In this document: one piece after another, positions 39,101 through 59,759 of the stretch
Numbering within the stretch: the stretch's first letter is position 1
How the letters are laid out: every line of letters starts with the position of its first letter
Made by a program: the position numbers and the translations under genes
Source: Candidatus Bathyarchaeia archaeon
Lineage (GTDB): Archaea > Thermoproteota > Bathyarchaeia > Bathyarchaeales > Bathyarchaeaceae
Assembly (NCBI GenBank): GCA_035283685.1
Contig: DATETJ010000002.1
Coordinates: 421,362 to 485,361, forward strand
DNA: 64,000 nt
Direction of reading: 5' to 3'
Notes under the pieces: model-generated
What the model was told of the DNA's origin: nothing
Databases searched by the model: none
Seen by the model: only the letters and a program-made list of their open reading frames with translations

Positions 39101-39104
39101 TTCG

Positions 39105-41127: not shown

Positions 41128-41132
41128 GTTTT

Positions 41133-43572: not shown

Positions 43573-44565
43573 TTATCTTCTGAATCCAACGCGTATTCTC
43601 GGGTCCAATATTCCGTACAGTATGTCTGCGGCAAGGTTGCAGATGATGGTAAGCACAGCGTATATGAAGAGCACTGCTTGGACAACTGGATAATCATCTG
43701 CTTGGAGAGCACTTATATACCAAGATCCGATTCCTGGCCACGTGAATATGTACTCGGTTATGATTGCTCCGGTCACTAAGCCTGGTATGGCGAGAGTGAT
43801 CATTGTGGCGATGGGTGGCAGCACGCTTCTGAAAGCATGTCGGTAGAGAACTGTTCGTTCACTTAGTCCTTTGGCTCGTGCTGTGAGCACATAATCTTGT
43901 GTGAGAGCGTCTATCATCAGGTTTCTGACGTACAGTGCGTATCCTCCGAAGCCTGCTAATATGAGTGTTAATGCGGGCATTGTCATGTGCCATGCAATGT
44001 CTGCCATGAGAGCTAAAGATTCAGTGGGAGCTGGAACGCTGACCATTCCACGAGGTGGGAACACTTGGATGCCGAACCACATCACGAAGAAGTAGGAAAA
44101 GAAGAGTAAAAATATCATTTGGATGAAGAATGTCGGCACTCCGTCTGCAAAGAGTCCGGCTGCCATTGAGACCATGTCCGTTTTGGATCCTCTTCTGGAT
44201 CCTGCGAGTATTCCCACGGGTGTGCCTAGCAGAATCGAGCCTATTAGCACTGTTCCCAGAAGTAGAAGCGTGTTTGGCAGTCGTAGGGCGAGGCCTTCGT
44301 TTATGGGTTCTCTTGTTTTGAATGAGAAGCCGAAGTTCCAGGTGAATACGCTCTGAATGTATAGACCGTACCGGGTCGTTAGAGTCTCATTCAGTCCGTA
44401 TTGGAGAAACAGTTGGTCTTTTTGTTCTTTTGTGAAGTTTGGATCAATGATGGTTCTGGTTGGGTCTCCTGCGTAGACGACTTGGAATATTACGAAAGTG
44501 AGTGTTGCGATGATGTAAAGTGTAACTAGTCCAATTGCAACTCTTTTTAGCAGATAACCTCTCAA
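43573..44565 (-). CDS. oppB: ABC peptide transporter permease (OppB-like)
   Basis: 330 aa. The N-terminus is MRGYLLKRV and the EAA motif region is LTARAKGLSERTVLYRHAFRS. Confidence 0.85.
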   Translation of the reverse strand: MRGYLLKRVAIGLVTLYIIATLTFVIFQVVYAGDPTRTIIDPNFTKEQKDQLFLQYGLNETLTTRYGLYIQSVFTWNFGFSFKTREPINEGLALRLPNTLLLLGTVLIGSILLGTPVGILAGSRRGSKTDMVSMAAGLFADGVPTFFIQMIFLLFFSYFFVMWFGIQVFPPRGMVSVPAPTESLALMADIAWHMTMPALTLILAGFGGYALYVRNLMIDALTQDYVLTARAKGLSERTVLYRHAFRSVLPPIATMITLAIPGLVTGAIITEYIFTWPGIGSWYISALQADDYPVVQAVLFIYAVLTIICNLAADILYGILDPRIRVGFRR

Positions 44566-44786: not shown

Positions 44787-46832
44787 ATGGACAATAGTAT
44801 GTTGAAGCGAGTATGCTTGACAGTGATTTGCATATCGATGCTCGCAGCAATGTTCTCCATTAGCCCCGCGTTTGCGCAACAGAGAGGTCCAAAACTAGAT
44901 CTCTATCGACTTAAGGTCACGAGGTCTCCGGCTGCTCAGTTGATTGAGATGACTACGGGTGCCAGTGAAGCGTGGGATGGTCTCATCCGACCCACTGACA
45001 TTGAAGAGATGGACCGCCAGGGTAAAGTTATCAGTTCTCGTGGTGGCTTCCACTACTGCCGTATCATCTTGAACTACAGGGTGCATCCACTTGACGATGC
45101 GAACTTCAGGCACGCCTTGTTCCATTTGGTGCCTAAAGACCGCATCATCGGCAACCTATTCAAGTACATCGTTGTGAAGGTTGACACTCCAGTGCCTCCA
45201 GCTCAAGCGTTGTGGTACAACCCCGCGGTTGACCCCCACGCCTACAGCCCTACAGAAGCAGAAGCAATTCTGGCTGCTGCAGGCTACCAGAAGATTGGAG
45301 GCGAGTGGAAGGACACGGATGGCTCAAACCTGCCTACTCTGCGCTTCTTCGTGCCGCTTGAAGTTGTGGCGCCTACGTCCTACACTATCGGTAGGATGGT
45401 GGTTGAGGAAGCTCAGGGCATCGGCTTGAACAACATTGACCTTCAACCAACTGACTTCGCCACGTACGTTGACAAGACTTTCAACCTGTGGGACTATGAG
45501 ATGTCGTGGGTTTGCCACGGTTTGGGCAGGTTCCCAACCCACTTGTTCTACCAGTTTAGTTCTGAAGAGAACTATCTGGGAAGCGGCAACCCTCACGGCA
45601 TAGTCTACCCAGCCCTGGATGCTAAGTTGTCCACTTTGTTGAGGAGCTTGAACCACGCGGACAAAGTTATTGCCGTGCGTGAGGCTCAGGTTCTCTTGAT
45701 GGGTGGATCAAGCAGCAGTCCAATGCCTCAAAATGTGCCGGCTACAGACCAAGCTTTGCCAACAGTTCCAATCTACTCTAGAAACTACTATGACATTCAA
45801 CAGCCCTACTTGCGCGGCGCCGTCAACATGTTCGGCTATGGCATTGCCAACGGCTGGACAATGTTGAACATTGAGAAAACCGCTGATCCTAACGGTCACG
45901 GAGCCAAAACCCTTGTGTGGATTGAGGACGAGTTCCCGGAGAGGTTGAACCCAACCTGGGCGTCAACGGTCTACGCGTGGGATTTCATGGAGAATTCATT
46001 TGACGGCTTGATGGCAACCAACCCATTCACTCACCGAGATGAGCCTTGGCTTGCCTCGAATGTAAGCGGATGGTCGTACGCGACTGAGCCGGGCGGCATG
46101 GCAGTAACCTTTAACATTAGGCTGAATGACCTGCACGGTTCACCAGTCCAATGGGCTGACGGTGATCCAGTTCAAGTGAGCGACATCAAGTTCTCGTGGG
46201 ACTTCCTCAAGAACAACACTATTCCAGCCTACTGGGGTGCTTTCAGGTTCTTCAAGAACGCCACTATCGTGGACGCGGACACTATTGTGGCTCACATGAC
46301 CACGACGAGCCAGTGGCTGGTCTACGATTTGGCTGGCACTGCTTACCTACTGCCGCCTCAAGTGTGGACTGTGGATCCACGTGATGGCTTGCCATGGGTT
46401 AACACCGCTGAGATAACAAGCTTTGACCCGTCTGCGCTGGCGTATCCTGATCCGGATGGTGGTGGACCGCTTCGTGCGCTTCCAAACCACTTGTTCGGGA
46501 CAGGCCCGTTCATACTGCAGCACTCAACCGCGTTCATGGCGACTAACGCTTACGGTGACCAGACTGCTAACCGCAACTACTGGTTAACTACGGCTGACAT
46601 CGATGCCATTATTGAGGACATGTTCTGGAGATCAGGTGACACCGTTGACAACGACGAAGTTGACATCACCGACCTAGACTTGATCGCCACATGGTTTGGC
46701 CAAAACGTGCCCCCAGCGCCTGTAAACGCTGACATCACCCGAGCTGCAGGTGGACCACCAGACACACTAGTAGACATCGACGACCTCGCAACAACTGGCA
46801 AATACTTCGGTGAAACCGAATCAGTGCCGTAA
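44787..46832 (+). CDS. ABC transporter substrate-binding protein (family 5, OppA/DppA-like) with C-terminal dockerin-like module
   Basis: 681 aa with a signal peptide (MLAAMFSISPAFA). The body is SBP_bac_5-like. The last 66 aa (nt 46632-46829) form two dockerin-type segments: GDTVDNDEVDITDLDLIATWFG and PPDTLVDIDDLATTGKYFG. Confidence 0.8.
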   Translation: MDNSMLKRVCLTVICISMLAAMFSISPAFAQQRGPKLDLYRLKVTRSPAAQLIEMTTGASEAWDGLIRPTDIEEMDRQGKVISSRGGFHYCRIILNYRVHPLDDANFRHALFHLVPKDRIIGNLFKYIVVKVDTPVPPAQALWYNPAVDPHAYSPTEAEAILAAAGYQKIGGEWKDTDGSNLPTLRFFVPLEVVAPTSYTIGRMVVEEAQGIGLNNIDLQPTDFATYVDKTFNLWDYEMSWVCHGLGRFPTHLFYQFSSEENYLGSGNPHGIVYPALDAKLSTLLRSLNHADKVIAVREAQVLLMGGSSSSPMPQNVPATDQALPTVPIYSRNYYDIQQPYLRGAVNMFGYGIANGWTMLNIEKTADPNGHGAKTLVWIEDEFPERLNPTWASTVYAWDFMENSFDGLMATNPFTHRDEPWLASNVSGWSYATEPGGMAVTFNIRLNDLHGSPVQWADGDPVQVSDIKFSWDFLKNNTIPAYWGAFRFFKNATIVDADTIVAHMTTTSQWLVYDLAGTAYLLPPQVWTVDPRDGLPWVNTAEITSFDPSALAYPDPDGGGPLRALPNHLFGTGPFILQHSTAFMATNAYGDQTANRNYWLTTADIDAIIEDMFWRSGDTVDNDEVDITDLDLIATWFGQNVPPAPVNADITRAAGGPPDTLVDIDDLATTGKYFGETESVP

Positions 46833-46849
46833 ACTTGGAGGTGAATAGA

Positions 46850-48256
46850 GTGAGAGGAAAAAGCATTTTGTGGTTGGCTCTTGCTGCGTTGCTGTTGGCT
46901 ATGCCTGCAGTTAACGTGCGGGCGCAGACCACAACTGTATATATAGATCCTCCATTGACCACTGGCCTAATGCCTGGCGACATCTTTGCGGTGAACCTGA
47001 TGGTGATGGGTGCTGTTGATCTGAAGTCATGGCAGGTTGAGTTGTCCTTCTCGAAGTACATGGCCACGCTAGCTGTCACCGACGTCATTGAGGGCGACTT
47101 CATGATGATTGGTGGCGATACCTTCATGGCTAAGTACGTGGATGCGTTCCACGGCTTGCTGAAGGTTGGTGTCACTATCCTCGGACAAGTCGGCGGCGTC
47201 TACGGTGATGGATGGCTAGCTACAATAATCTTCACTGTGCTAGAAGCAGGCGAAACTCCATTAGACCTACATGACACTATACTGTTGGACTCCATGGGCG
47301 TTGAGATGGCGCACGATGCAGTTGACGCCTATTATCTTGGACTCACTGCGGATATGTACAACGTGCCTGGCAGCAACCAGACAAGAGAAGGTGGCTGGAA
47401 GGCAGGAGACACCCGCAAGTTCAAGATGATAGTCCAAAACACAGGCTATGCACCACTCTATGTGCGTGCAAAGCACTCAACTGTGCGCGGCTCAGACAAC
47501 AAGGTGTTCAACCTGTACAGCGGCCAACACATGTACACAACAGTGCCTAGACCAACAACGTACTACAACGTGAGTGGCTACACACCCGCAGGCTTCTCTG
47601 ATTGGACAACAGTCGGTACAAGTCCATTCCTAGCCCCATGGGGACCAGCGGCAGGTGCTGGCGCGGACGGTAGCTACGTTCAAGCGAGCGACTACAGCCA
47701 GTTGACAGGCATAATTGACTTCCAGGACATCAGCTTGAACCCAGGAGACGTCATCCTGAGTGTAACGCTTGAAGCGTTCACAAAGGCAGACAGCACTGCA
47801 ATTGATATGGACGTCTACACGTATCCAGACTTTGCTTGGCTAGGTTCCTTGTGGGGTTCTGGAAGCTACGGCTGGAAGACTCAGAGATGGATAACAGGTC
47901 CAATTTCCGACTCTATGCCGTCGCTCAAGACCGCCGCAGGATTCAATAGCCTGAAGCTAGTGATTCACTACTGGACAGAAACTGGCGCTACGATGGGCAA
48001 CGCTTTCATGGAAGCGATCAGATTGAGAGTGGCTTTCACTGGAATTGATCCGTTGACTCCAGGCTTCTACACTATCATGCCAGGCGAACAGAAAGTCCTG
48101 CCAGCAGCGTTATGGGATCTATGGGCATTCGACGCAAACACCTACACAACAACTTCAACCCTTGAGTATCGATACAACTTCCCAGACCCACGATTCCCAA
48201 TGGTTTGGCAAACTGGTCAGCATACCAAAACGTTCACTTGGTGGGTCCGACCGTAA
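46850..48256 (+). CDS. Secreted cohesin-domain protein (class-1 cohesin + uncharacterised C-terminal module)
   Basis: GGAGGTG precedes the GTG at 46850 (the track ORF starts at 46835), and a signal peptide follows. The cohesin is at nt 46937-47341 (VYIDPP...KSWQVELSF...GDGWLATIIF). There is no TM anchor and no dockerin. Confidence 0.75.
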   Translation: MRGKSILWLALAALLLAMPAVNVRAQTTTVYIDPPLTTGLMPGDIFAVNLMVMGAVDLKSWQVELSFSKYMATLAVTDVIEGDFMMIGGDTFMAKYVDAFHGLLKVGVTILGQVGGVYGDGWLATIIFTVLEAGETPLDLHDTILLDSMGVEMAHDAVDAYYLGLTADMYNVPGSNQTREGGWKAGDTRKFKMIVQNTGYAPLYVRAKHSTVRGSDNKVFNLYSGQHMYTTVPRPTTYYNVSGYTPAGFSDWTTVGTSPFLAPWGPAAGAGADGSYVQASDYSQLTGIIDFQDISLNPGDVILSVTLEAFTKADSTAIDMDVYTYPDFAWLGSLWGSGSYGWKTQRWITGPISDSMPSLKTAAGFNSLKLVIHYWTETGATMGNAFMEAIRLRVAFTGIDPLTPGFYTIMPGEQKVLPAALWDLWAFDANTYTTTSTLEYRYNFPDPRFPMVWQTGQHTKTFTWWVRP

Positions 48257-48354
48257 ACGGATTCATCACGTGACGTCCCAAACTCCCTTTTTTCTTTTCT
48301 TGTAAATTAACACAATGTCACAGGAGACCCCACCCTACGAGAAGACAGAAACTC

Positions 48355-50265
48355 GTGCTTCTGACGATGCTCGTTTCTTCGGTTTTGTTACTCGCAAATA
48401 TACATTCTGTGTCGCCCATTGTTTGGTCAAGCGAGAAACCGCTCCCAACTAACACGTCGTACTATGATGGATCTGCTTCGGTTACCCAGACATCGGATGG
48501 AAAAATTTGGGTAGTCTGGGACAAGGAGGTGCAGTCGCGCTGGTCTATTTTCTATACGACGTCGTCTGATTACGGCGCGACTTGGGCGCTTGAGCAAAAC
48601 CTCACCGCGGTTCCAAGTCAAGACTTTAACAAAGATCCGTCAATTGTTCAGCTGTCGAACGGAACAATAATAGTTGTGTGGGCAGCGCAGAAGAATCCGC
48701 CGCTTCTTCCCAATGATTTTGAAATGAGTGCATCGCCTAACGCGCTCACAATTCCTAGGGGAAGTTCAGGTTTTTCCAATATCACAGTCCATTCGCTGAA
48801 CGGCTTCAGTGACTTGGTGAGTTTGTCAACGAGGATTGGACCACCCACTCCACATATTACTACGGGTTTTAGCCCTCCTCAAGTGACGCCTCCGCCGAAC
48901 GGGAACGCTTATTCAGGTCTTACAATAAATGTTGGCGTGCAGACCCCTGTGGGCACGTACACTGTAACAGTGAGAGGCTACAACCAGGCGCTCGACGTAA
49001 CTCGAACCACGATTGTCACTGTGACTGTTCCTTCCACCTTAAGTTCACCTTCTTCGATGGTTAGCGACTTCTCGCCTGCGGCTGAGCCTACACAGTCTCC
49101 TTATGAACTTGTCTACAGAACCTCGTCAGATAATGGAACCACCTGGTCAGCTGAAAAGAAGCTTCCGCTTGACGATGCTTCTGGGGATAATTTGGCGCCT
49201 TCCATAATGCAGGCTGCTAATGGCTCTATTTGGCTTGTCTGGGTTTCTGGTCGGACGGGTAATTCCGAATTATATTATAAGACTTCGCCGGATGGGATTT
49301 CTTGGTCTAGTGATTTTCGGCTCACGTATAATGCGAGTGTGGATGGCAGCCCATCCATTGCGCAAATGCAAAATGGCAACATATGGGTTGTTTGGTCTAC
49401 GGACAGGTTTGGGTTAAACGAAGAGCTGATTTACAACGTTTACAATGGAACATCTTGGCTGGGTGAACAGCGGCTCACTAGCACCGTAGATTACATTGAC
49501 GTGTATCCCGCGATTCTTCAGGCATGGAATGGAACGATACGCGTATTCTGGACTATAATTGGTGTTCCAGGCGATGGCACAGGCGACATTTACTATGTGG
49601 AGTCAAATAACAATGGAACTTCGTGGTCAAGTCCGATTCCATTTACAACCGACACTCGGGAGGACCAGTGGGTTGCTGTGGCTGAGTCTGTGGACACGCG
49701 TATGTGGGTTGTGTGGACTTCGAATCGAACTGGTGGCTTTGACCTTTATTACAGAACTTCGCTTGTGCACAACTTGGCTGTCACTGTAGTTGATCCTTCG
49801 CCGCTCAGAGTCTACCAGAAAGAAAATGTGACGATAGATGTGACTGTGCGGAATTGGGGTGACTTTGGTGAATCCTTCACTTTGTCCTGTTACGCTAATA
49901 CTACCTTGGTATATTCTCGTCCAGTTACTTTAGCGTCTGGGGCTTGGACAACAGTGACTTTTGGATGGAATACGTCTGGTTTTGAGCGGGGCAACTACTA
50001 TGTGACCGCAGTGGCAAGCGTGGTCCTAGGTGAGATTTATGCTGGAGATAATTCTCTGACGCATTCAACTATTCGTGTGAAGCTTTTAGGTGACGTAGAT
50101 GACAGTGGGTTGGTCAACACGCGTGACATGTTTAATCTGGGAAAGGCTTTCGGATCTGTGCCTGGAAACCCTAATTGGAATGAAGAGGCAGACATGAACG
50201 GAGACAACGCAGTCAACACTGTTGATTTGTCGGAGTTAGTCGGCAACTTCGGCGCAACTGGCTAA
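48355..50265 (+). CDS. BNR/Asp-box repeat beta-propeller protein + Ig-like insert + CARDB + C-terminal dockerin
   Basis: The Asp-box motifs are SSDYGATW, SSDNGTTW, SPDGISW and SNNNGTSW. The CARDB region is HNLAVTVVDPSP...VTVRNWGD. The dockerin is at nt 50083-50262 (GDVDDSGLVNTRDMFNLGKAFG / ADMNGDNAVNTVDLSELVGNFG). Confidence 0.8.
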   Translation: MLLTMLVSSVLLLANIHSVSPIVWSSEKPLPTNTSYYDGSASVTQTSDGKIWVVWDKEVQSRWSIFYTTSSDYGATWALEQNLTAVPSQDFNKDPSIVQLSNGTIIVVWAAQKNPPLLPNDFEMSASPNALTIPRGSSGFSNITVHSLNGFSDLVSLSTRIGPPTPHITTGFSPPQVTPPPNGNAYSGLTINVGVQTPVGTYTVTVRGYNQALDVTRTTIVTVTVPSTLSSPSSMVSDFSPAAEPTQSPYELVYRTSSDNGTTWSAEKKLPLDDASGDNLAPSIMQAANGSIWLVWVSGRTGNSELYYKTSPDGISWSSDFRLTYNASVDGSPSIAQMQNGNIWVVWSTDRFGLNEELIYNVYNGTSWLGEQRLTSTVDYIDVYPAILQAWNGTIRVFWTIIGVPGDGTGDIYYVESNNNGTSWSSPIPFTTDTREDQWVAVAESVDTRMWVVWTSNRTGGFDLYYRTSLVHNLAVTVVDPSPLRVYQKENVTIDVTVRNWGDFGESFTLSCYANTTLVYSRPVTLASGAWTTVTFGWNTSGFERGNYYVTAVASVVLGEIYAGDNSLTHSTIRVKLLGDVDDSGLVNTRDMFNLGKAFGSVPGNPNWNEEADMNGDNAVNTVDLSELVGNFGATG

Positions 50266-50353
50266 CTGAGACCTGTCTCCTTCAATTATGGATAAGTTTA
50301 AATGTTTTATCTTCTCTGTTTTCCTACGAATCCTATTCACGCCTAAAGAGGAA

Positions 50354-51634
50354 ATGAGGATGCCGAAGCCTAAACATGTGTTGCTTTTGTTGAGTTTGTT
50401 TGTTTTGAGTCTTTCAGCTTTGAGTTTGGTCCCTTCGTCTGTGGAGCAGGTGAAGCCGCTTGTTTATGTTGATCCGACTCCTATTGATTTTGAGCCTGGC
50501 GAAAGTTTCAATATAAATATCACAATCAAGTCTGCTGTGAACGTGTTTGCTTGGGAGTTCAAGTTGTTGTGGAATGCGTCAGTTCTTAATTACACTGGAG
50601 CTGTTGAAGGCGACTTTCTTAAGGGTTTTCAAAACGCGTCCACTTATTGGGTTAACCCGGTGCTGACTCAAAACGTCAGTGACAAATATCGTGTTCTTCT
50701 TGGGGTTACTCGTTTAGGCGCTGATATTCCTGGGGTTAGCGGAAGTGGTAAGCTTGCTATGATAAGTTTTGATGTTTTGACCAAGGGCGAAACAACCTTA
50801 GATTTGGTGGAAACCAAATTGAGAGACAGCGTTCCAAATCCAATTGATCACGATTCGCGGGATGGTTTGTTCTCGAATACAGCTGGTTTTCCGCGACCTG
50901 ATTTTTCGTTCACTCCTGCTAAAGCGAATATTAATGAGACCATTACGTTTGATGCCAGCAATTCGACTGATGTTGATCAGGGCGTAGATCATTACATTGT
51001 TCTTTATTCTTGGAATTTCAGCGATGGCACTCCCGTCGTGGAGGAGGCTGGCGCCATTACTTATCATGCTTATTCTGAGGGTGGCACTTATGACGTGACT
51101 TTGACTGTTATGGACAATGATCGCTGGAACAGGTCGATTACTAAGGCGGTGAAGGTTCGGTTCACGTACGATGTCAAGGTCGCCGAGGTTAAAGCTGCGG
51201 TTGAGTCTGCTACAATTGGCGACAAAGTGGCTATTACGGTGAAGGTTAGCAATGAGGGTTCAGGCGATTTGACGAGTGTGAGTGTCACGGCTTATTATAG
51301 TGTAGGGTTGCAGTTGGGTACTGCTTTGGGTCCAGCGCAGACTACGTCGTTAGTTGTTGATCAGACTAAGACTTTGTCTTTCGAGTGGGACACTTCAGGT
51401 GTGGCTAAGGGCAGCTACCGAATTAACGCGGCGGTTGCTCCTGTTGCAGGTGAGCCTGAACAAGCTCAGGAGGATAATACGAGCCGGGGTGGCACGGTTA
51501 CGTTGGTTGAGGTTCAGGAGACTCCTTGGCTCTTGTACGGTGGCATTATCGCCGGAGTTGCCGTGGTGGCTGTTGTCGGTTTCCTGTTTATGAGGCGCCG
51601 AGGCGGCGGTGGCAAGCAAACTCCAATTCGCTAG
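50354..51634 (+). CDS. Membrane-anchored cohesin (class 2) - PKD - CARDB surface protein
   Basis: The start is taken at MRMPKPKHVLLLL (the track ORF starts at 50288). The cohesin is at nt 50459-50875 (NVFAWEFKLLW...GSGKLAMISF). The PKD motif is FDASNST...YSWNFSDGT and the CARDB motif is VTVKVSNEGSGD. A C-terminal TM helix plus RRRGGGG follows. Confidence 0.8.
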   Translation: MRMPKPKHVLLLLSLFVLSLSALSLVPSSVEQVKPLVYVDPTPIDFEPGESFNINITIKSAVNVFAWEFKLLWNASVLNYTGAVEGDFLKGFQNASTYWVNPVLTQNVSDKYRVLLGVTRLGADIPGVSGSGKLAMISFDVLTKGETTLDLVETKLRDSVPNPIDHDSRDGLFSNTAGFPRPDFSFTPAKANINETITFDASNSTDVDQGVDHYIVLYSWNFSDGTPVVEEAGAITYHAYSEGGTYDVTLTVMDNDRWNRSITKAVKVRFTYDVKVAEVKAAVESATIGDKVAITVKVSNEGSGDLTSVSVTAYYSVGLQLGTALGPAQTTSLVVDQTKTLSFEWDTSGVAKGSYRINAAVAPVAGEPEQAQEDNTSRGGTVTLVEVQETPWLLYGGIIAGVAVVAVVGFLFMRRRGGGGKQTPIR

Positions 51635-51848
51635 ACCCGGAAACTTCTAGCATCTCTTTTTTCTTGTGGTCTTTTTGGAAATCTGTTTCTTAGTAGAGGC
51701 AAGTTCTGGCGTTTGATGCGCCTTTTTCCATTATAGTGTGGTTACAATAATCGTCTAGTATTGTGTTTAGTAGATGTGTTCAGCAACTTTTAAATTGTGT
51801 CTTGCATTTAGTTTCACATGTTCAACGTTGGAGAGAGAAGGCGAGGAC

Positions 51849-54761
51849 ATGAAGAAACCTAATCCGCGTCAGGTTTACGGCATAATTGTTTTACTCACGG
51901 TTTTGATCACTCCATTTCTGCCATTAGTACCAACGGCGAAATCACAAGCTTCAACAATCGTGTATGTCGATCCCCCTTCCACTACGGGCTTATTGCCCGG
52001 AGACATTTTCGCTGTTAACATAATGATCTCGGGCGCTGTCGATCTGAAATCATGGCAGTTCAAAATGTCTTTTCAAGGAGTCATCGACGGAGTGCTAATG
52101 GTCACCGATGTCATTGAAGGCGACTTCCTGATGATAGGAGGCACAACCTACTTCACCAAGAACATTAACAATGACGCTGGCTGGGTTCAAGCCGCCGCCA
52201 GCATTCTGGGTCAGGTGGGCGGCGTGTACGGAGACGGCTGGTTGGCAACAGTGATCTTTAAAGTTGTTGGAGGCGGCGAAAGCCCGCTCGACCTGCATGA
52301 CACGATACTTCTTGATTCAAACAGTGCTGCGATTCCGCATGATGTAACTGACGGGAGTTATGTTGGTGCTGCACCTTATGCCTCTTTCAGTTACCGTCCG
52401 TATGAGGTGATTGATGGCTATGAGCCTGCAGCTAATCAAACAGTCACGCTTAATGCTACTGACAGCTACGATCCAGAAGGAACGATTATAGCAGACTATG
52501 CCTGGAACATCACCACAGCTGATTTGGCGGAAGTTATCGCAGCTTTCAGTACAACTGATAAAATCTCAACGCACAGCTTCACAAAAGAAGGGCTATACCT
52601 TGTGAAACTCAATGTTACTGACAGCGATTCGCCGAATCCCCATTGGGATGCGACTAACAAGACTATTAACATTGTAAGAAGAGACATAAACGTCACTAAG
52701 GTCGAAGTCGTGCCCATTGGAGAGATCATACCTGGGACTTTGATAAGCATCAATGTTACTGTCCAAAACATTGGAACTGGACAAGAAGACTTCGGTGTAA
52801 CCACATTCTATAATGGCGTTCCAATAAGCACCACGCAGATAATAGGACTGAGCCCGAAAACTCCCGGGACACCATATTTGCAGTACACTAAAAGCACAGT
52901 GCATACTTGGGATACAACGGGCATCCCAGAAGCTGTATACGCCATAAAAGGCGTGGCAATCACAGACCCCGGCGAGAACAACATAACAAACAACGAGCTT
53001 GTTGGCGGAAGCGTAACGATTGCATCCGCGAGCAGGCTCATATACAATATTCCAGTTTTTGGCAGAACGTTCACAGTCGGGATACGCACGGACTCGCTGG
53101 CGTCTGCTGATGCGAATGAAATGTTTGTTCACGGCGAGAAAAAATTGACCTTTAACGTCACAGGACAACAAGGAATCTTACGCTTCTCAAACGTAACATT
53201 ACCGCATGATCTACTGAACGCCTCAAGTCCAACAGCGTGGATTGTTAAACTAAACGGCTCCAACACCAACTACATGGCAATATTCAACAGCACTCATTAC
53301 TTCATATACCTCAACTACACATTCGCAAGCGCTTACACAGTGAGTATAATAGGAGAAAGCGTTGCCGACCCACCACAGCCTATCCTAATAATCACACCAA
53401 CACGAGGGGTCGCCGGTCAACCTGTGACACTTGATGCCTCCTCGAGCACAGATCCTGACGGTCACGGTTTCACCGAGTTCTTTTACTGGGCTTACAGGGT
53501 TTCTGCGCAGGGTGACAAAATCAATTTCTGGAACAAAACCACGACCGACGATTCAGTTACCGTGGTGTTTAACCAGTCTGCCCTCAGTCTGAACTCGCTA
53601 CGAGTGACCTTGACCATTACGGACAGCTGGGGAATGGAGAACACGACTCAAGAGCAAATTCTCGACGTGTTGTGGCCGTTTGACATAGCCTTAGTAGACA
53701 TTGACGTCTCCAAGGACTCCATCAACATAGGTGAAGCAATTTTCATCAATGTGACAGTGACAAGTGTCCTCGATACTCATGGCGACAAAGTGCTGTTCAA
53801 AGTCACAATATATGGCAATGATACCACATTGACGACGAAGCTGGTCAAACCTAACATACAACCTCCGGAAATCCAAGTGCCCGAAGTTGGCATTAATGCA
53901 CGAGCGGATTTCGAATGGAACACAACAAGCTTGGCAATCGGCACTTACACGCTGAAAGCAACTGTAACAGTCGTCGAGTATTCCACTATACGCACGAATC
54001 TTCCTGCGGAAATCAACATCACAGATAACATGCTGACTTACGGCGAGGTAACAATAAAGAAATGGGGAAGTCTAGTAACCATGGTACTGTCGCCTTCAAC
54101 AATTAACATAGGACAAGACACCAAGATCAGCGGGGCGGTAACTCGTTCAGCAACTTCGCTTACAGATGTCCCCGTAACCGTTCAGTACAGAGGCTCTGGA
54201 CAAACCGGCGCATGGACTGACGCTGCAACAGTGAACACAAACGTTCAAGGACAATATCAATACACATGGAAGCCCCTCTTGGCTGGCAACTATGACATAA
54301 GAGCTAGTTGGGCTGGAGACAGCATCACGTCGGCTAACGTGAGCACAACCAGAGCTTTAGTAGTTCGTCAAGCAATAAGTGAGATAACCATCGAGGTCAC
54401 AGCCAGATCAGCAACTGCAGGCTCCACAATAACCATTAGTGGCACAATCACCCCTTATGCGCCTGCTGTATCAGTGACAATTAATGTGCGGAAAGACGGC
54501 GGAACTTGGACAACGCTGGTTACAGTGACAACTGACGCTCAAGGCAACTATCAGTATGGATGGAAGCCAGGCGAAGCTGGAAGCTACGAACTGCAAGCAA
54601 CATGGGAAGGTAACGTTAACGCCGGGGCGAGCGAAAGCGACATCAAAACCGTGTCAGTGTCCGCTGATGGATTACAAAGCATCTACATATACATCGCTGT
54701 GGGAGCAATCATACTTATCGCTGTGGTTGCGGCAGTGTTCTTCCTTAGAAAGAGAAAATAA
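51849..54761 (+). CDS. Large membrane-anchored cohesin (class 1) protein with PKD/CARDB/Ig-like array
   Basis: The start is taken at MKKPNPRQ (the track ORF starts at 51774). The cohesin is at nt 51960-52367 and is close to the module at 30816-31223. It has PKD-like motifs (LDASSSTDPDG), CARDB-like segments and two tandem Ig-like repeats (NVQGQYQYTWKP / DAQGNYQYGWKP). A C-terminal TM helix plus FLRKRK follows. Confidence 0.8.
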   Translation: MKKPNPRQVYGIIVLLTVLITPFLPLVPTAKSQASTIVYVDPPSTTGLLPGDIFAVNIMISGAVDLKSWQFKMSFQGVIDGVLMVTDVIEGDFLMIGGTTYFTKNINNDAGWVQAAASILGQVGGVYGDGWLATVIFKVVGGGESPLDLHDTILLDSNSAAIPHDVTDGSYVGAAPYASFSYRPYEVIDGYEPAANQTVTLNATDSYDPEGTIIADYAWNITTADLAEVIAAFSTTDKISTHSFTKEGLYLVKLNVTDSDSPNPHWDATNKTINIVRRDINVTKVEVVPIGEIIPGTLISINVTVQNIGTGQEDFGVTTFYNGVPISTTQIIGLSPKTPGTPYLQYTKSTVHTWDTTGIPEAVYAIKGVAITDPGENNITNNELVGGSVTIASASRLIYNIPVFGRTFTVGIRTDSLASADANEMFVHGEKKLTFNVTGQQGILRFSNVTLPHDLLNASSPTAWIVKLNGSNTNYMAIFNSTHYFIYLNYTFASAYTVSIIGESVADPPQPILIITPTRGVAGQPVTLDASSSTDPDGHGFTEFFYWAYRVSAQGDKINFWNKTTTDDSVTVVFNQSALSLNSLRVTLTITDSWGMENTTQEQILDVLWPFDIALVDIDVSKDSINIGEAIFINVTVTSVLDTHGDKVLFKVTIYGNDTTLTTKLVKPNIQPPEIQVPEVGINARADFEWNTTSLAIGTYTLKATVTVVEYSTIRTNLPAEINITDNMLTYGEVTIKKWGSLVTMVLSPSTINIGQDTKISGAVTRSATSLTDVPVTVQYRGSGQTGAWTDAATVNTNVQGQYQYTWKPLLAGNYDIRASWAGDSITSANVSTTRALVVRQAISEITIEVTARSATAGSTITISGTITPYAPAVSVTINVRKDGGTWTTLVTVTTDAQGNYQYGWKPGEAGSYELQATWEGNVNAGASESDIKTVSVSADGLQSIYIYIAVGAIILIAVVAAVFFLRKRK

Positions 54762-54894
54762 GGCGGGCATTGAACTCGTAGACGCTTTCTCCCATCTTTC
54801 TGTATGCTCTGGCTTATAGACGACAATTACACAAACGATTTATATTTGACTGCAGTTTTATTACGTGTAGTTGGCAGTAGAGGGAGAGAAAGAG

Positions 54895-56076
54895 ATGAAA
54901 CGTGTACTAGCAATAGCACTATTTATGATTATAGGTTTCAGCGCAGTTTTCAGCATGGTAAAAATAACTTCAGCAACAACAATCATAACTTTGAGTATTG
55001 ACCCCCTGAAAGTTCCTGGAAAAGTCGGAAGAAACATCACATTCGACATCGCCATCAGCGGAGTCAACTCATCCGTCCTTGACTTGTGGGCGTGGGAACT
55101 CAAACTCAACTGGACAGACATTGACTTCAACTACGTCAGCGCAGTGCAAGGTTCGTTCCTTGCACAAAGCGGCACCACCTTCTGGGTCTCACCAATTAGG
55201 AGCGGCACAGGAGGCAACGAAACTTTGACTTTGGCTTGCACGCGTACGGGAGCCGGATCAGGCTCCTTGGGTAGCGGTGTTCTAGCCACCATAACCCTAT
55301 ATGTGGTCGGTGGAACATCAGGATCCAAATTTGACCTTTACTCCATCAAGCTGCGGAACAGCCTCCTTAATCCAATTGAGCCGCCAACATACGATGTAAG
55401 CGTGCTCGATCAAGTGGGCGAGTTTGCACGACCAAGAAGCTATGATCTCGAACCGGTGTTTGGCGAGGTTGACATTTATGATCTAGCGGTCGTAGGAGTG
55501 AACTACGGAACAAACGTTATCCGCGTCACAAAGATTGCCACACAATGGGCAGTAGCAGGTGGAGCTGGATGGCTCAATCCAGAGTTTGTGGGATCTTCTG
55601 ATGACACTCGGGCATCCGAAACGACTCTCAACGATGCACATAGATGGACTAACTTCGGCTTCAACACAACATCTTGGACGGGAGTGAGTAAAGTCGAAGT
55701 GGGGCTGGAGAGAATGGTTGACAGCAGCTTCAGATTGATAACCGTTGCAATGTCCAACGACAATGGCGGAACTTGGAGCGCCACGACGTTTACTCACAAC
55801 GCCTCTGACCAATTTGACACTCTCGTCTGGGTCGATGTAACCACAGCATACGCTTGGACCAAAGCAATGGTGAATAACATCGCGGTCAGACTGACCTATG
55901 CTTCGGCTACAGGAACAACATTCCGTCTTGACTACTTGGCTATTAGGGTCACTCCGTCTCCAGTGCTTTTGCCGCCAGAGGTATTTGATCCAGAAGCGGA
56001 TGTAGACAACGACCTTAACGTTGACATTGATGACTTGGTCAGAGTGGCGACCAATTATGGGGAGTACGAACTATAA
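54895..56076 (+). CDS. Cohesin + split-dockerin protein (putative adaptor)
   Basis: The start is taken at MKRVLAIALF (the track ORF starts at 54871). The cohesin is at nt 54982-55425 (LWAWELKLNW...GSGVLATITL). The dockerin half-sites are at nt 55441-55512 (GEVDIYDLAVVGVNYG) and 55978-56073 (DVDNDLNVDIDDLVRVATNYG). They are separated by about 155 aa. Confidence 0.75.
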   Translation: MKRVLAIALFMIIGFSAVFSMVKITSATTIITLSIDPLKVPGKVGRNITFDIAISGVNSSVLDLWAWELKLNWTDIDFNYVSAVQGSFLAQSGTTFWVSPIRSGTGGNETLTLACTRTGAGSGSLGSGVLATITLYVVGGTSGSKFDLYSIKLRNSLLNPIEPPTYDVSVLDQVGEFARPRSYDLEPVFGEVDIYDLAVVGVNYGTNVIRVTKIATQWAVAGGAGWLNPEFVGSSDDTRASETTLNDAHRWTNFGFNTTSWTGVSKVEVGLERMVDSSFRLITVAMSNDNGGTWSATTFTHNASDQFDTLVWVDVTTAYAWTKAMVNNIAVRLTYASATGTTFRLDYLAIRVTPSPVLLPPEVFDPEADVDNDLNVDIDDLVRVATNYGEYEL

Positions 56077-56092
56077 TTTGGAGGGAGCGTGA

Positions 56093-57685
56093 ATGAACAA
56101 AGCAATCAAGATTATGTTGCTTCTGCTTGCACTTGCACTAGCTTCAGTCCTTACAGCTTCAGACAAAGTTGCGCCTTTCCAAATCGAAAGCGCTAGCGCA
56201 CCTCCAGTTACCGGTACGTATGCTTCCCGCCCCAGCAATTACACATTTAGTAGTGGGGTATTCGCGAGATTCCCAGACAGAGCGTACGATGGCAGCAACG
56301 CAACAACAAACGTTGCCAATTGGGCCCACACCAACGGAGCAGGTTACGGCACATCTAACGGCTACTTTGAGCTAAACGTCTACGGTCCGAGGGCAGCACC
56401 GCCTAGGGGTTCAAGAATCACGCGGGTTGATCTGCATGTTGTTTTCTTTGTGGTATCGCAGACGTCAGATACCGGAGCCACAATGTACATCAACTATCGG
56501 GTAAGTCCGAGCACTACTAACACTACTCTTCAATCGTGGACTCGAGCACAGCTAAACGTTAGTGCTCCCTGGCATAACAGAACTTATACCAATCAAGCAG
56601 ATCCCAACGGCGGCGGATGGGCTTGGGAAGACTTATCCAACCTGAAGTTCCGGTTCAACAGACAAGACCCGAGTACGCCAAGCACCAGCGGCGTCTTACG
56701 AATCCATGAGGTTTGGGCAACTGTTTACTACGAGTTTACGCAAACAGTCGCCATCTATCCAAAGATTCAATCGCCTATTCCTTCCCAAGTCAAAATAAAC
56801 GTCACAGGAATAGAGGAGCTGTACGGCTTTGAGTTTAAGATGACCTACAACGCAACAGCGATAACTGTGACAAGCGTCCAATTAGGACCATATCTGAACA
56901 CCACGGCTGGTGCAGGAAACACTTATGGCGCTCTACTCAAACTGAATGACACAGCAGGCTTCGTTTGGGCTACACAATCAATTCGAGGAAACATTAGAGG
57001 CGGAAACATAGCTTACGGAACTTGGCAAACGCTAGCCACAATAAACATCGCTACCCAATCTGGTGGACCAACCAACCTCAACTTCGAAGTCAAACTCGCA
57101 GGACACAACTACCTCATAAAGAAGGCATACCCCGGTTCCTTCACACTAATCCAGCCTGGACATGACGTTGCAGTAACAAACATCGTTCCAACACCAACAA
57201 CGGTAACGCGAGGAGACAACGTAACAGTTGACGTCACAGTCAGAAACGACGGCGACTACATCGAAACATTCTACCTATCAACCTACGCTAACACATCAGC
57301 CGCAACCTCGCTAATAGAAACCAAAACCGTGAGCGGCTTAGGCTTAGGCGCAACCCAAGTAGTGTCCTTCACATGGAACACCCGCGACTTCCCGAGAGGC
57401 AACTACACAGTCAGCGCAGTAGCAGCTACAATAGGCGTACTAGACACAGACTCAACTGACAACACACTATACAACCTAGCCTCAGTAGTAGAAGTCAACC
57501 CACTCTTCGGCGACATAAACGAAGACGGCTGGGTAAGCAGCGCCGACCTCGCAGCCATCAACTTCTCATGGGGAACCCAACCCGGAGACCTACTCTGGAA
57601 CTTGAACGCTGACCTAAGCAGCGACAGCTTCATAGACGCTGAAGACCTCAGACTACTCGGCGAAGCCTGGGAACCACCAGCATAA
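56093..57685 (+). CDS. Unknown N-terminal module + cohesin + CARDB + C-terminal dockerin protein
   Basis: It has a GGAGGGAG RBS and a signal peptide. The cohesin is at nt 56744-57151 (LYGFEFKMTY...WQTLATINI). The CARDB region is HDVAVTNIVP...VTVRNDGD. The dockerin is at nt 57500-57673 (GDINEDGWVSSADLAAINFSWG / ADLSSDSFIDAEDLRLLGEAW). Confidence 0.8.
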   Translation: MNKAIKIMLLLLALALASVLTASDKVAPFQIESASAPPVTGTYASRPSNYTFSSGVFARFPDRAYDGSNATTNVANWAHTNGAGYGTSNGYFELNVYGPRAAPPRGSRITRVDLHVVFFVVSQTSDTGATMYINYRVSPSTTNTTLQSWTRAQLNVSAPWHNRTYTNQADPNGGGWAWEDLSNLKFRFNRQDPSTPSTSGVLRIHEVWATVYYEFTQTVAIYPKIQSPIPSQVKINVTGIEELYGFEFKMTYNATAITVTSVQLGPYLNTTAGAGNTYGALLKLNDTAGFVWATQSIRGNIRGGNIAYGTWQTLATINIATQSGGPTNLNFEVKLAGHNYLIKKAYPGSFTLIQPGHDVAVTNIVPTPTTVTRGDNVTVDVTVRNDGDYIETFYLSTYANTSAATSLIETKTVSGLGLGATQVVSFTWNTRDFPRGNYTVSAVAATIGVLDTDSTDNTLYNLASVVEVNPLFGDINEDGWVSSADLAAINFSWGTQPGDLLWNLNADLSSDSFIDAEDLRLLGEAWEPPA

Positions 57686-57710
57686 AAAACACCAGCTCTC
57701 ACACATCATC

Positions 57711-57720
57711 TTCTTTTTTC
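57711..57720 (+). terminator. Oligo-T tract; candidate archaeal terminator of the cohesin/dockerin operon
   Basis: The sequence ttcttttttc lies about 25 nt after the stop codon at 57683-57685. Confidence 0.35.
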
Positions 57721-57972
57721 GTTACACGCAGAACAGCAGAGAGCCTTAAACAACCTGAATCTAGCCAGCGCCTCCAAAGCAACACACGCTGGCATCTGCA
57801 CACCCAAACCACACTCCTGCAACACAAGACTTGACGACGACACTACAACGAATACCTAGCCATCAACACGCACACAGCAAAGAAGACCCTGCAACAAAGG
57901 AAGCAGTTGTGGCAAAAGCACGAGCGCCCTTCAACAAGCTCCCACACAGCCACACAGGCGCACTCAAAAAGG

Positions 57973-58017
57973 TCGTTATTATTACGGTTTCTAAGCGGAA
58001 GTTAATAACACCTGAAA
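57973..58017. repeat. Copy 1 of an intergenic repeat of about 45 bp (22-nt exact core ttctaagcggaagttaataaca at 57989-58010)
   Basis: The core is identical to 58290-58311, and the flanks are similar (tcgttattatt.. / ..ctgaaa). The copy contains the GTTATTA/TAATAAC inverted repeat. Confidence 0.8.
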
Positions 58018-58215
58018 CAGAAACCAGCCCCCCACGCCATCCCTTGGCGAAACCATGCCCAAACAGTGACAAAACTTGACACAAGACACCAGGCAAACAG
58101 CGCCCAAAACACCATACAAAGACCCAAACAGACCCCAAAACACAACGCTCAAACCTTGTTGATGACACTAAGAACGATTGGGCATCAACACCCACACAGC
58201 CAGACGCCTACAACA

Positions 58216-58260
58216 TAGAAGTAGTAGTCAACGTACACGCGGCGCAGACTACTACTTCTA
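58216..58260. other. Perfect 14-bp inverted repeat (stem-loop) in non-coding region
   Basis: The arm tagaagtagtagtc (58216-58229) pairs with gactactacttcta (58247-58260). The loop is 17 nt. Confidence 0.8.
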
Positions 58261-58273
58261 AACCTGAAGCACC

Positions 58274-58318
58274 TCGGTATTATTGCTTGTTCTAAGCGGA
58301 AGTTAATAACATCTGAAA
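58274..58318. repeat. Copy 2 of an intergenic repeat of about 45 bp (22-nt exact core at 58290-58311)
   Basis: It has the same 22-nt core and similar flanks as 57973-58017. The cores are 301 bp apart. Confidence 0.8.
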
Positions 58319-58496
58319 AGAAACCCACCTCCAACATCCAAGATGTTGTTGTGGCAAACCCTTCAACGTCAACAACAACTTCAAAACAGCCACAGCCCTT
58401 AACACGTAACATTGAGAGGCGTTAATGCCACCGGGAACAGTCGTATGACGACATCCACGCAGCTTTCAGCCTCTAAACGCATCCGCAACACTGTTA

Positions 58497-58545
58497 GAAG
58501 AAGGTATAAGAGGCTAACCGCCTTCTTCTTTTGAAATTTCTTTTT
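58497..58545 (+). terminator. Hairpin followed by a T-rich tract (intrinsic-terminator-like, + strand)
   Basis: The arm gaagaagg (58497-58504) pairs with ccttcttc (58521-58528). It is followed by ttttgaaatttcttttt. Confidence 0.4.
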
Positions 58546-58592
58546 CCGCAGAGCCACATGCACCCTAACATAGAGGCTCAGCAACAGTCAGT

Positions 58593-58626
58593 TGTTAGTG
58601 TTTCTTAGGCAACGTCAACACTAACA
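58593..58626. other. 10-bp perfect stem-loop just downstream of the minus-strand gene that ends at 58680
   Basis: The arm tgttagtgtt (58593-58602) pairs with aacactaaca (58617-58626). The loop is 14 nt. Confidence 0.7.
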
Positions 58627-58679
58627 TCCACGCAAATGCAACCGCACAAACCGACAATTCATAAAGCTGGAAACTACGC

Positions 58680-59246
58680 TTACTTTCTCTTAACCTTCAT
58701 CGGCTTCCTAGACTTCGCAACCAACCCAAAAATCATGACAACCACACCCAACAAAGCCGCCAACGTTCCCACAACTGAATACGGGGAACCAACACGATTC
58801 TTAGCCACATTCTCCTTCGCATACACATTACTGCCAGGCAAAACATCAACTGGAACCGCGCCCTCATTCACCAAATCCACCTGATACGTACCATTCCCAC
58901 CCACATCCACCCTCTGACCAAAAACCGCTCCAACCTCACTAAAAACGGGAACCAAAGTCTGACTACCCTCCGCATCCCTCTGCACACTCGACACCGACAC
59001 CCTAACAACCCCAGAAAAACTCAAATTCAACTTAAACCACGAACTCCTCGACATAAACCTACCCCAAAACCCCCTGTCCCCAGAACTCCCCGACGCATTC
59101 AACCGCGAAGGCCAAATAGGCCTCACAACAGAACCCCAAACCTCAACCACATTCTCCTCAAAATAAACCTCACGAACCGAATACAACGTCAACGCAACAC
59201 CCACAATAACCAGAACCAAACCTGCAACAACAAATAACCGCCTCAA
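58680..59246 (-). CDS. Hypothetical membrane protein (N- and C-terminal TM helices, extracytoplasmic middle)
   Basis: 188 aa with MRRLFVVAGLVLVIVGVAL at the N-terminus and LLGVVVMIFGLV plus a basic tail at the C-terminus. Codon usage is GT-rich. Confidence 0.45.
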   Translation of the reverse strand: MRRLFVVAGLVLVIVGVALTLYSVREVYFEENVVEVWGSVVRPIWPSRLNASGSSGDRGFWGRFMSRSSWFKLNLSFSGVVRVSVSSVQRDAEGSQTLVPVFSEVGAVFGQRVDVGGNGTYQVDLVNEGAVPVDVLPGSNVYAKENVAKNRVGSPYSVVGTLAALLGVVVMIFGLVAKSRKPMKVKRK

Positions 59247-59261: not shown

Positions 59262-59759
59262 CTAACTCTGCTTCACAACCGCCGAACCCCTAAGCTCAAC
59301 CACTTGCTTATCAACATACTCCCAGAACAAACTTTCAAACTCGCTCATCGCCTCTTGCAGCCTCACATCCCTCAAAAAAAGCCCTCCCCCACCAAAAACC
59401 GAACCAACATAACCCAAAACCATCCCCAACGAAAACCCACTAGTCTTCCTCCCAGGCACAAACTCCACCTTAAAAAACTCCGGACTACCAAAAACCCTCA
59501 CATTAACCCGGAAATGAACATTCACCGCCTCTATTTTGAAACCCGAGCCAAAACGCTCCAACTTAGTCTCAAACTTGTTGTCAACGAAAAAACGCTCTAC
59601 ACCCTCACTGAACAACCGGAGATCCACATTCTGATCAGACCACTCATCTTTCACAGTTTCAATCCCTACATAACCAGAAAGCAGAAACGATGTTTTAAAA
59701 CCTTTTTGACGCCGACCAACGTCACTTAGACTTCCTCCGCTTCCGCCAAAAAACAACAA
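59262..59759 (-). CDS. Hypothetical protein
   Basis: 165-aa ORF whose 5' end overlaps the upstream gene by 38 nt, so the start is uncertain. No family recognised. Confidence 0.4.
   Translation of the reverse strand: MLFFGGSGGSLSDVGRRQKGFKTSFLLSGYVGIETVKDEWSDQNVDLRLFSEGVERFFVDNKFETKLERFGSGFKIEAVNVHFRVNVRVFGSPEFFKVEFVPGRKTSGFSLGMVLGYVGSVFGGGGLFLRDVRLQEAMSEFESLFWEYVDKQVVELRGSAVVKQS

Follow-up and report, generated by a model that had tools for sequence, protein, structure and literature searches.

Archaeal non-cellulosomal cohesin-dockerin modules have been on record since 1999, and archaeal cohesin-dockerin pairs have been reported to bind specifically (Bayer 1999, Haimovitz 2008; both points as cited in PMC9012536). 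The closest described systems are those of anaerobic methanotrophic (ANME) archaea, one genome of which has been credited with as many as 80 cohesin and 149 dockerin domains (Timmers et al. 2017, PMC5244752), and in which dockerins are carried by ATP-binding cassette (ABC) binding proteins (NikA/OppA, TroA) alongside scaffoldin-like proteins (Chadwick et al. 2022, PMC9012536). The present analysis concerns a cluster of seven cohesin/dockerin genes, g1 to g7, in a 64,000-nt stretch of DNA (the window) from a Candidatus Bathyarchaeia archaeon, which an earlier reading of the sequence alone (the original prediction) had taken to encode a non-cellulolytic, cellulosome-like surface assembly linked to an Opp-type importer. 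As dockerin-tagged archaeal ABC binding proteins are already in print for ANME archaea, the principle is not new. The original prediction had supposed that no such system was described, which the dockerin-tagged binding proteins of the ANME genome papers contradict (PMC9012536, PMC5244752), and that archaeal cohesin/dockerin genes are merely scattered, which is at odds with the domain counts given above.

The ANME proteins and the locus described here have in common that they are archaeal and non-cellulolytic, with dockerin-tagged substrate-binding proteins (SBPs), proteins bearing both cohesin and dockerin, and co-occurring CARDB/PKD-type domains. However, the ANME descriptions are genome-wide domain lists without a defined operon, whereas a compact syntenic cassette physically linked to oppBCDF is found here, in another phylum; it is set apart further by a permuted SBP, transmembrane (TM)-anchored stalks with a single cohesin and a split dockerin. 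Archaeoglobus fulgidus has a couple of isolated cohesin/dockerin genes of unassigned role and, to our knowledge, no SBP cargo, no set of anchors and adaptors and no linkage to a transporter. The Sulfolobus bindosome, a surface assembly of sugar-binding proteins with type IV pilin-like signal peptides and the Bas assembly ATPase system, shares the idea of organising ABC SBPs in a dedicated structure at the surface of an archaeon that lacks an outer membrane, but it involves no cohesin-dockerin pairing and has no sequence relationship to the present proteins. Bacterial cellulosomes (C. thermocellum, A. cellulolyticus, R. flavefaciens) follow a matching logic of anchored cohesins, cohesin-plus-dockerin adaptors and dockerin-bearing cargo. 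They are, however, anchored by SLH domains or sortase, whereas a TM helix is used here with no more than two cohesins per protein, and the locus has neither glycoside hydrolases or a carbohydrate-binding module (CBM) nor a many-cohesin primary scaffoldin, its cargo being an SBP and a propeller. Cohesin-dockerin assembly beyond cellulose is known from the Ruminococcus bromii amylosome and the Limousia mucinolysome (PMC4611034, PMC12997984); these are bacterial enzyme complexes, whereas no enzyme cargo was identified here. In the literature searched, which was incomplete in coverage, no compact oppBCDF-coupled operon in Bathyarchaeia was described, nothing was found on Bathyarchaeia with dockerin or cohesin, and no description was found of a permuted SBP family or of a dockerin split by an Asp-box domain.

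Seven secreted cohesin and dockerin proteins

The evidence base consisted of Pfam searches, family profiles compared with solved structures, and two AlphaFold2 (AF2) models, those of g1 and g6. The Pfam cut-offs were 24.1 bits for Cohesin (PF00963), 22.9 bits for Dockerin_1 (PF00404) and 32.4 bits for SBP_bac_5. In the list of open reading frames (ORFs) of the window, seven + strand ORFs lie within 44787-57685, and all seven proteins have cohesin and/or dockerin modules together with a signal peptide, an N-terminal hydrophobic signal-like segment being present in 7/7. The proposal of seven co-directional secreted cohesin/dockerin genes was therefore borne out by the ORFs, the signal segments and the module searches. 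The gene coordinates below are those of the longest ORFs; for g2, g4, g5 and g6, the later starts chosen in the original prediction fit a signal peptide better.

44787-46832, + strand: g1, signal peptide, family-5 SBP (aa 32-612) and dockerin (Pfam, AF2, Foldseek)
46623-46829, + strand: dockerin of g1, aa 613-681 (tail profile against the PDB, Pfam on orthologues, AF2 helices)
46835-48256, + strand: g2, signal peptide, A-type cohesin (46922-47335) and 300-aa C-terminal module (BLASTP, cohesin hidden Markov model, HMM)
48355-50265, + strand: g3, signal peptide and BNR/Asp-box β-propeller with an inserted Ig-like domain (48427-49764) (Pfam)
49792-50016 and 50077-50262, + strand: CARDB and canonical dockerin of g3 (Pfam, above cut-offs)
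50288-51634, + strand: g4, signal peptide, B-type cohesin (50447-50905), PKD, CARDB, TM helix (51530-51586) and basic tail
51774-54761, + strand: g5, signal peptide, A-type cohesin (51945-52370), stalk and C-terminal TM helix (54687-54743)
54871-56076, + strand: g6, signal peptide, cohesin (54976-55425) and dockerin repeat 1 (55426-55533)
55534-55962 and 55963-56073, + strand: inserted Asp-box β-sandwich and dockerin repeat 2 of g6 (AF2, profiles)
56093-57685, + strand: g7, signal peptide, N-terminal module without assignment (56207-56734) and divergent cohesin (56738-57142)
57191-57466 and 57509-57682, + strand: CARDB (above Pfam cut-off) and canonical dockerin of g7

The anatomy that had been proposed, with TM-anchored cohesins, proteins carrying both cohesin and dockerin (g6, g7), and an SBP and a BNR propeller as dockerin-only cargo, proved correct. 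The proposed Pfam check succeeded in part: the modules of g3 and g4 and the CARDB of g7 scored above cut-off, while the dockerins of g1 and g6 and the cohesins of g2 and g5 went undetected. The cohesin jelly-roll could nevertheless be recovered with the AF2 model of g6, and the dockerin repeats with family profiles against solved structures. Proteins identical to g1 and g2 are named in NCBI 'ABC transporter substrate-binding protein [Candidatus Bathyarchaeia archaeon]' and 'cohesin domain-containing protein', respectively.

A circularly permuted SBP with a dockerin tail

The SBP of g1 was matched by SBP_bac_5 at 107 bits in two parts of reversed order, aa 32-247 corresponding to model positions 143-349 and aa 420-609 to positions 4-152, and both halves individually exceeded the cut-off. 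The reversal was also seen in alignments to solved SBPs and to NCBIfam models. When g1 was re-ordered (aa 356-612 followed by aa 32-355), a single collinear match to model positions 4-349 was obtained at 115.9 bits. Judged by sequence, g1 is a circularly permuted family-5 / cluster-C SBP that departs from the canonical N-to-C order; compared with canonical cluster-C SBPs, it has its new N-terminus near model position 143 and its new C-terminus near 152. The SBP and dockerin of the original prediction were both confirmed for g1, the permutation being the correction to it.

The AF2 model of native g1 is a compact SBP (pLDDT 91.7, pTM 0.87) for which Foldseek matches were exclusively cluster-C SBPs, including DppA, NikA, AppA, OppA, the mannoside binder TM1223 and chitin-oligosaccharide SBPs (E ~1e-15). 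These alignments covered only 310-370 columns, with TM-scores normalised to the target of 0.40-0.53, a partial coverage that is expected with circular permutation. The closest solved structures were binders of peptides, nickel chelates and oligosaccharides, which matched about equally well, and the ligand of g1 may be a peptide, a metal chelate or an oligosaccharide.

With canonical cluster-C SBPs (DppA, OppA, NikA, AppA, TM1223), g1 shares fold and family and has cognate permeases and ATPases next door, the difference being that a C-terminal dockerin replaces the lipid or TM anchor. As the signal of g1 ends in AFA-QQ without Cys, and lipobox and TM helix are both lacking, the dockerin is the only candidate anchor. 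This dockerin was invisible to Pfam, both in the full protein and in the excised tail. A profile of 19 orthologous tails, however, gave dockerins as its 19 best matches in the PDB (best 2y3n_B, 2.4e-6), followed by a few weak matches to EF-hand Ca-binding proteins. Dockerin_1 was matched by 10/19 of the orthologous tails, which grade into canonical dockerins, and the AF2 model has confident helices at residues 627-635 and 664-672. Among 69 relatives of g1 (30-73% identity), which align over most of their length, the dockerin directly follows the SBP in 67.

Cohesins and membrane anchors

Cohesin genes in the window were found not to be confined to the cluster. A further carrier lies 16 kb upstream:

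28593-31391, - strand: two-cohesin scaffoldin of 932 aa (Pfam Cohesin 34.4 bits, PKD; two cohesin HMM matches)

This scaffoldin comprises cohesin 1 (30747-31238), cohesin 2 (30072-30539), four PKD domains, further β-sandwich domains and a C-terminal TM helix, bringing the cohesins of the window to seven (g2, g4, g5, g6, g7 and these two), with at most one per protein in the g1-g7 cluster and two in the scaffoldin. Neither the seven proteins nor the scaffoldin contain a glycoside hydrolase or CBM, as had been stated for the cluster.

By Pfam, the cohesin of g4 scored 25.9 bits, above the cut-off, and its PKD and CARDB were matched too; g7 scored 23.0 bits, just below it, and g6 15.3 bits. The cohesin of g5 was missed in the full-protein scan and recovered with a cohesin HMM. 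For g2 the full-protein scan gave no match and the excised module 15.7 bits, far below the cut-off. By BLASTP, the N-terminal module of g2 matched g5 (54% identity, E 1.6e-49) and g4 (36%, 7e-14), and the N-terminal modules of g4 and g6 matched each other (E 2.7e-12). A cohesin HMM of the g6 family, for which 33 relatives were collected and 23 aligned, detected g2, g4 and g5 at 1e-15 to 1e-23 (g2 2e-16, g5 1e-15), both scaffoldin cohesins and, weakly, g7 (7.4e-5); when g7 was aligned by hhalign with the remaining six window cohesins, the probability was 92.7%.

The AF2 model of the N-terminal domain of g6 (pLDDT ~75-95) matched more than 40 solved cohesins in Foldseek at TM-scores of 0.65-0.77, including the A. 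fulgidus cohesin 2xdh at 0.71, with which it has its fold in common. The cohesin β-sandwich (jelly-roll) fold is thus modelled for g6 and, for the other cohesins, assigned by homology. Two sequence groups can be distinguished. Group A comprises g5, scaffoldin cohesin 1 (75% identical to the g5 cohesin) and g2 (56-59%); group B comprises g4, scaffoldin cohesin 2 (43% identical to the g4 cohesin) and, loosely, g6 (32-34%), with g7 as an outlier. The membrane-anchored scaffoldin therefore carries one A-type and one B-type cohesin.

Within g1-g7, a C-terminal TM helix followed by basic residues occurs only in g4 and g5; elsewhere it is found in the scaffoldin. The protein g4 is a short membrane anchor whose orthologues all terminate in TM+RRRK. 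The long anchor, g5, has a stalk of about seven β-sandwich domains, namely PKD, CARDB, one without assignment and two Big_3_5 (Pfam PKD_4, CARDB, Big_3_5). The description of both as TM-anchored cohesins with PKD/CARDB domains accordingly holds by Pfam, HMM and TM segments. In g2, for which a cohesin plus an uncharacterised module had been proposed, the cohesin was recovered by the cohesin HMM and BLASTP; there is neither anchor nor dockerin, and the C-terminal 300 aa have an uncharacterised fold.

Canonical and split dockerins

The BNR propeller, CARDB and dockerin assigned to g3 all scored above their Pfam cut-offs (BNR_2 45.8 bits, Dockerin_1 28.2 bits), and the dockerin matched the solved dockerin 2y3n_B at 6.8e-9. 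In g7 the Dockerin_1 score was 21.9 bits, just below the cut-off, and the dockerin was detected by the g1-tail HMM (1e-8); near-threshold Pfam scores, hhalign and this HMM together uphold the proposed order of N-terminal module, cohesin, CARDB and dockerin. A CARDB Ig-like module lies directly 5' of the dockerin in both g3 and g7, the two dyads being 40% identical over 166 residues. An Ig-like module in this position recalls the X-module and dockerin of the cellulosomal scaffoldin CipA, and the CARDB and dockerin of g3 align to the X-module and type II dockerin of CipA (2b59_B, 3e-6).

The dockerin of g6 was missed by Pfam, also in excised segments. Its two halves (aa 186-221 and 365-401) are kept in 23/23 aligned relatives, and in the most distant of these the halves are canonical repeats, DINANGIVSVSDL and DVNKDGIVNGADL. 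A profile of the joined halves matched a whole dockerin over both repeats at 5.5e-8, and in other members of the split-unit family Dockerin_1 positions 2-24 were matched before the insert and positions 36-52 after it. The split of this dockerin by a whole domain is therefore real at the sequence level; together with the AF2 match of the cohesin, these results agree with the cohesin and split dockerin first proposed for g6.

The insert of about 145 aa is a confidently modelled β-sandwich with one Asp box (SNDNGGTWS). It belongs to no Pfam family, and in the PDB it resembles only the Asp-box motif, a short one, of sialidases. Among 1.84 billion representative proteins searched, 156 relatives were found. 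About 25 clusters have the complete half-dockerin/insert/half-dockerin unit at the C-terminus, attached for example to cohesins or a subtilase; in many others the insert occurs by itself, frequently more than once per protein. The module is also inserted in one relative's g7 orthologue and occurs twice in a g7-like protein of another relative. An HMM search for the unassigned modules of g2 (aa 255-401), g6 (the insert) and g7 (aa 39-214) as a single family was empty, and hhalign among them gave 31% for g2 against g6 and 0.5% and 1% for the other two pairs.

Two dockerin types can be named, those of g3 and g7, which are canonical with a preceding CARDB, and those of g1 and g6, which share a VDIxDL motif. 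Both repeats of g3, both of g7 and repeat 2 of g6 show the full D-x-[DN]-x-[DN]...D Ca-ligand pattern. The g1-tail HMM and the g6-halves HMM each detected all four dockerins, and an HMM scan of all window ORFs found none outside g1, g3, g6 and g7.

The importer and conservation of the cassette

The genes divergent from g1 are as follows.

43573-44565, - strand: oppB, Opp/Dpp-type ABC importer
42098-43558, - strand: oppC, same importer
41133-42065, - strand: oppD, same importer
40099-41250, - strand: oppF, same importer
38690-40068, - strand: three small membrane ORFs (173/154/136 aa), directly downstream of oppF

Pfam placed the opp genes on the - strand, in keeping with the divergent arrangement first proposed, and the start of oppB lies 221 nt upstream of g1. 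With ABC_tran plus oligo_HPY matched twice, BPD_transp_1 plus OppC_N and BPD_transp_1 plus BPD_transp_1_N, oppBCDF is predicted to be an Opp/Dpp-type importer with two permeases, two oligo_HPY ATPases and an adjoining SBP. This SBP, g1, is the only one adjoining oppBCDF, and Pfam found no second SBP for the importer in the window. The 173-aa ORF after oppF gave no match in a Pfam search; by reading, it has one N-terminal hydrophobic segment, and the 154- and 136-aa ORFs look multi-TM. Three size-matched ORFs also lie 3' of oppF in two diverged relatives (L015, L016), and these small proteins may be accessory subunits of the importer. A TATA-like TTTATATAA was noted ~70 nt 5' of g1 and a T-run 3' of g7, while tRNA, Rfam and tandem-repeat scans yielded nothing bearing on the g1-g7 cluster.

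The same locus is present on metagenome contigs of up to 0.8 Mb, and at least six diverged loci from metagenomes keep its gene order, with identity as low as 34%. The conserved order is SBP-dockerin, g2-like cohesin protein, BNR-dockerin, cohesin-PKD-CARDB-TM, long cohesin stalk and g6-like protein. It recurs where g6 is 59% (L009), 54% (L012), 44% (L007) and 34% (L011) identical, and also in a locus whose SBP is 34% identical (L013). The orthologues of g4 and g5 still end in TM+RRRK, and those of g3 and g7 still terminate in a dockerin. Synteny of opp genes with cohesin/dockerin genes, for which a check in related archaea had been proposed, was found in three loci (L012, L015, L016), where oppFDCB and the three small membrane ORFs are divergent from the SBP gene as in the window. 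This conservation in diverged relatives supports a functional unit tied to the importer.

Components are also fused to one another in relatives. An SBP-dockerin-cohesin-g2 C-module protein was found in two clusters (P0049, P0060), the members of P0049 coming from independent samples, and an SBP-dockerin-cohesin-dockerin protein in three (P0051, P0052, P0056); SBP-dockerin-cohesin-cohesin-dockerin is also among the relatives. A 1182-aa BNR-SBP-dockerin fusion (P0097; locus L014, 5107-8655) joins g3-type and g1-type components in one polypeptide, with a permuted SBP and a second SBP gene adjacent. The relatives bear the taxonomic labels 'Bathyarchaeia/Bathyarchaeota'; GTDB representative genomes, scanned twice for relatives of g6, gave no match.

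Several other features of the window were noted. The ORF 37362-38633 (+) encodes a protein of 423 aa whose secreted N-terminal segment contains CPTCP and is followed by a multi-spanning membrane domain; it had no Pfam match and by eye resembles a thiol-disulfide (DsbD/CcdA-like) membrane protein. The stretch of about 1 kb that follows g7 (57690-58680) is without a convincing ORF and is strongly C- and A-rich on the + strand, the GC skew falling to -0.47 and the AT skew being +0.32 in the 58-60 kb bin; neither an Rfam family nor a tandem repeat was matched in it. The cluster is flanked by two NosD/right-handed β-helix proteins and a gingipain-like Peptidase_C25 (34559-36886, -; 59722-61716, -; 61825-63372, +), each with its own C-terminal TM helix and without a dockerin. 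One relative (L009) has a NosD protein and the C25 peptidase in synteny, and a NosD-CARDB protein of another (L007) carries a dockerin. Further away are two tandem MoeA (molybdopterin/tungstopterin insertion) paralogues and two aldehyde:ferredoxin oxidoreductase genes (6583-9234, -; 22445-26564), a subtilase (15083-16504) and a multicopper oxidase (19524-21632), the last two both without a dockerin.

Discussion

We consider it probable, from module content and conserved gene order, that the cassette is a non-covalent surface tether holding the importer's SBP and its BNR partner on Ig-stalk anchors, with g6 and g7 as adaptors and g2 as a partner protein. All seven proteins have N-terminal signal-like segments for export, and g4 (short), g5 (long stalk) and the scaffoldin are fixed in the membrane by their C-terminal helices, each presenting cohesin at the tip of an Ig-like stalk. 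As g1 has a dockerin and neither lipobox nor TM helix, it would be retained at the cell only by its dockerin plugging into a cohesin, and the propeller of g3 would be docked likewise. The adaptors g6 and g7 would extend or branch the assembly, and g2, as a free cohesin protein, would bind a dockerin partner or pass it on, most likely g1, the g1-type and g2-type parts being fused in some relatives. SBP and propeller would in this way be kept close to the membrane beside the Opp/Dpp-type importer. Substrate capture and uptake by the cluster are plausible. Given the cohesin sequence groups and the two dockerin types, it is also plausible that two binding specificities co-locate the SBP and the propeller on one scaffold. 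The pairings, and with them the hierarchy put forward in the original prediction, the stalk geometry, the dependence on Ca and the substrate are what we infer from these data.

Several observations weigh against this reading. The second Ca loop of the g1 dockerin has a 6-residue insertion (GPAGxPP in relatives), repeat 1 of g6 is without most of the canonical Asp/Asn ligands, and both halves of the g6 dockerin were left unmodelled by AlphaFold (pLDDT < 50); the Ca-ligand pattern of g1 repeat 1 is shifted as well. Owing to the loop insertion and the degenerate g6 repeat, binding by these two dockerins may be weak or independent of Ca. Furthermore, the window has seven cohesins against four dockerins, so that further partners are likely to be encoded at other sites in the genome and the cluster does not form a closed system. 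Internal promoters may have room in the 110-215 nt gaps before g5 and g6, and a single operon for g1-g7 therefore remains putative. Finally, the cassette of L013 has no adjacent opp genes.

The L013 cassette would also suit an adhesive or cell-envelope matrix, in which stalks and propeller form a surface coat for particles or partner cells and the SBP serves as recognition head. In ANME archaea, CARDB, PKD and HYR-type domains with cohesin/dockerin have been interpreted as adhesion (PMC5244752, PMC9012536), and the cluster lies in an island of membrane-anchored surface proteins (the two NosD/β-helix proteins and the C25 peptidase). We nevertheless regard such a matrix as unlikely, as the divergent oppBCDF stays beside the SBP in four diverged locus versions, no other SBP for the importer is present in the window, and the SBP model shows the whole cluster-C fold in compact form.

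A degradative multi-enzyme complex, the archaeal counterpart of a cellulosome, amylosome or mucinolysome, with g3 as a sialidase-like exo-glycosidase, dockerin-bearing hydrolases encoded elsewhere docking onto the spare cohesins and the SBP capturing the products, appears more improbable still. The propeller of g3 has three Asp boxes (S-x-[DN]-x-G-x-[ST]-W) and belongs to BNR_2, a sialidase-type propeller family, and its sole match to a solved GH33 structure, the candidate 4fj6, was weak (E 0.0044 over 120 residues). By reading of the sequence no F/YRIP (RIP) motif was seen in g3, however, and the blades are near-repeats of one another, like those of binding propellers. Non-cellulolytic complexes of this type do exist in bacteria (PMC4611034, PMC12997984), the cohesins of the window outnumber its dockerins, and among the relatives a NosD/β-helix protein (L007) bears a dockerin and a Peptidase_S8 subtilase (P0116) a split one. 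The S8, C25, NosD and multicopper-oxidase proteins of the window, by contrast, are all without a dockerin, C25 and NosD being self-anchored by TM helices, and the window has no CBM and no scaffoldin with more than two cohesins. Least credible, and very improbable in our view, is that the modules are relics, decayed so far that pairing is lost, leaving secreted proteins that act independently and merely have β-sandwich and EF-hand-like domains in common: although several modules fall under Pfam cut-offs (the g1 and g6 dockerins; the g2, g5, g6 and g7 cohesins), the Ca loops of g1 repeat 2 and g6 repeat 1 are degenerate and AF2 confidence for the g6 dockerin is low, module order, dockerin motifs and gene order are conserved from 73% to ~30% identity, full D-x-[DN]-x-[DS]...D loops are seen in the dockerins of g3 and g7, and the recurrent fusions between components argue for their physical association.

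A wider proposal can tentatively be made, which we hold to be possible, if rather doubtful: cohesin-dockerin pairing may serve as a general, exchangeable SBP anchor, a modular 'bindosome', in Bathyarchaeia and possibly other archaea, the permutation having given the dockerin a new C-terminus to occupy, two cohesin specificities joining the SBP to a capturing or trimming propeller, and the split dockerin adding a ligand-binding or regulatory element. For the function of archaeal cohesin-dockerin modules, the locus offers a small, conserved and self-contained test case, in which four dockerins and five to seven cohesins stand beside one transporter and two clear membrane anchors. Of wider structural interest are a naturally permuted cluster-C SBP family and the interruption of a dockerin by an entire domain. 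As Bathyarchaeia are heterotrophs that abound in sediments, the way in which they capture substrates bears on carbon cycling.

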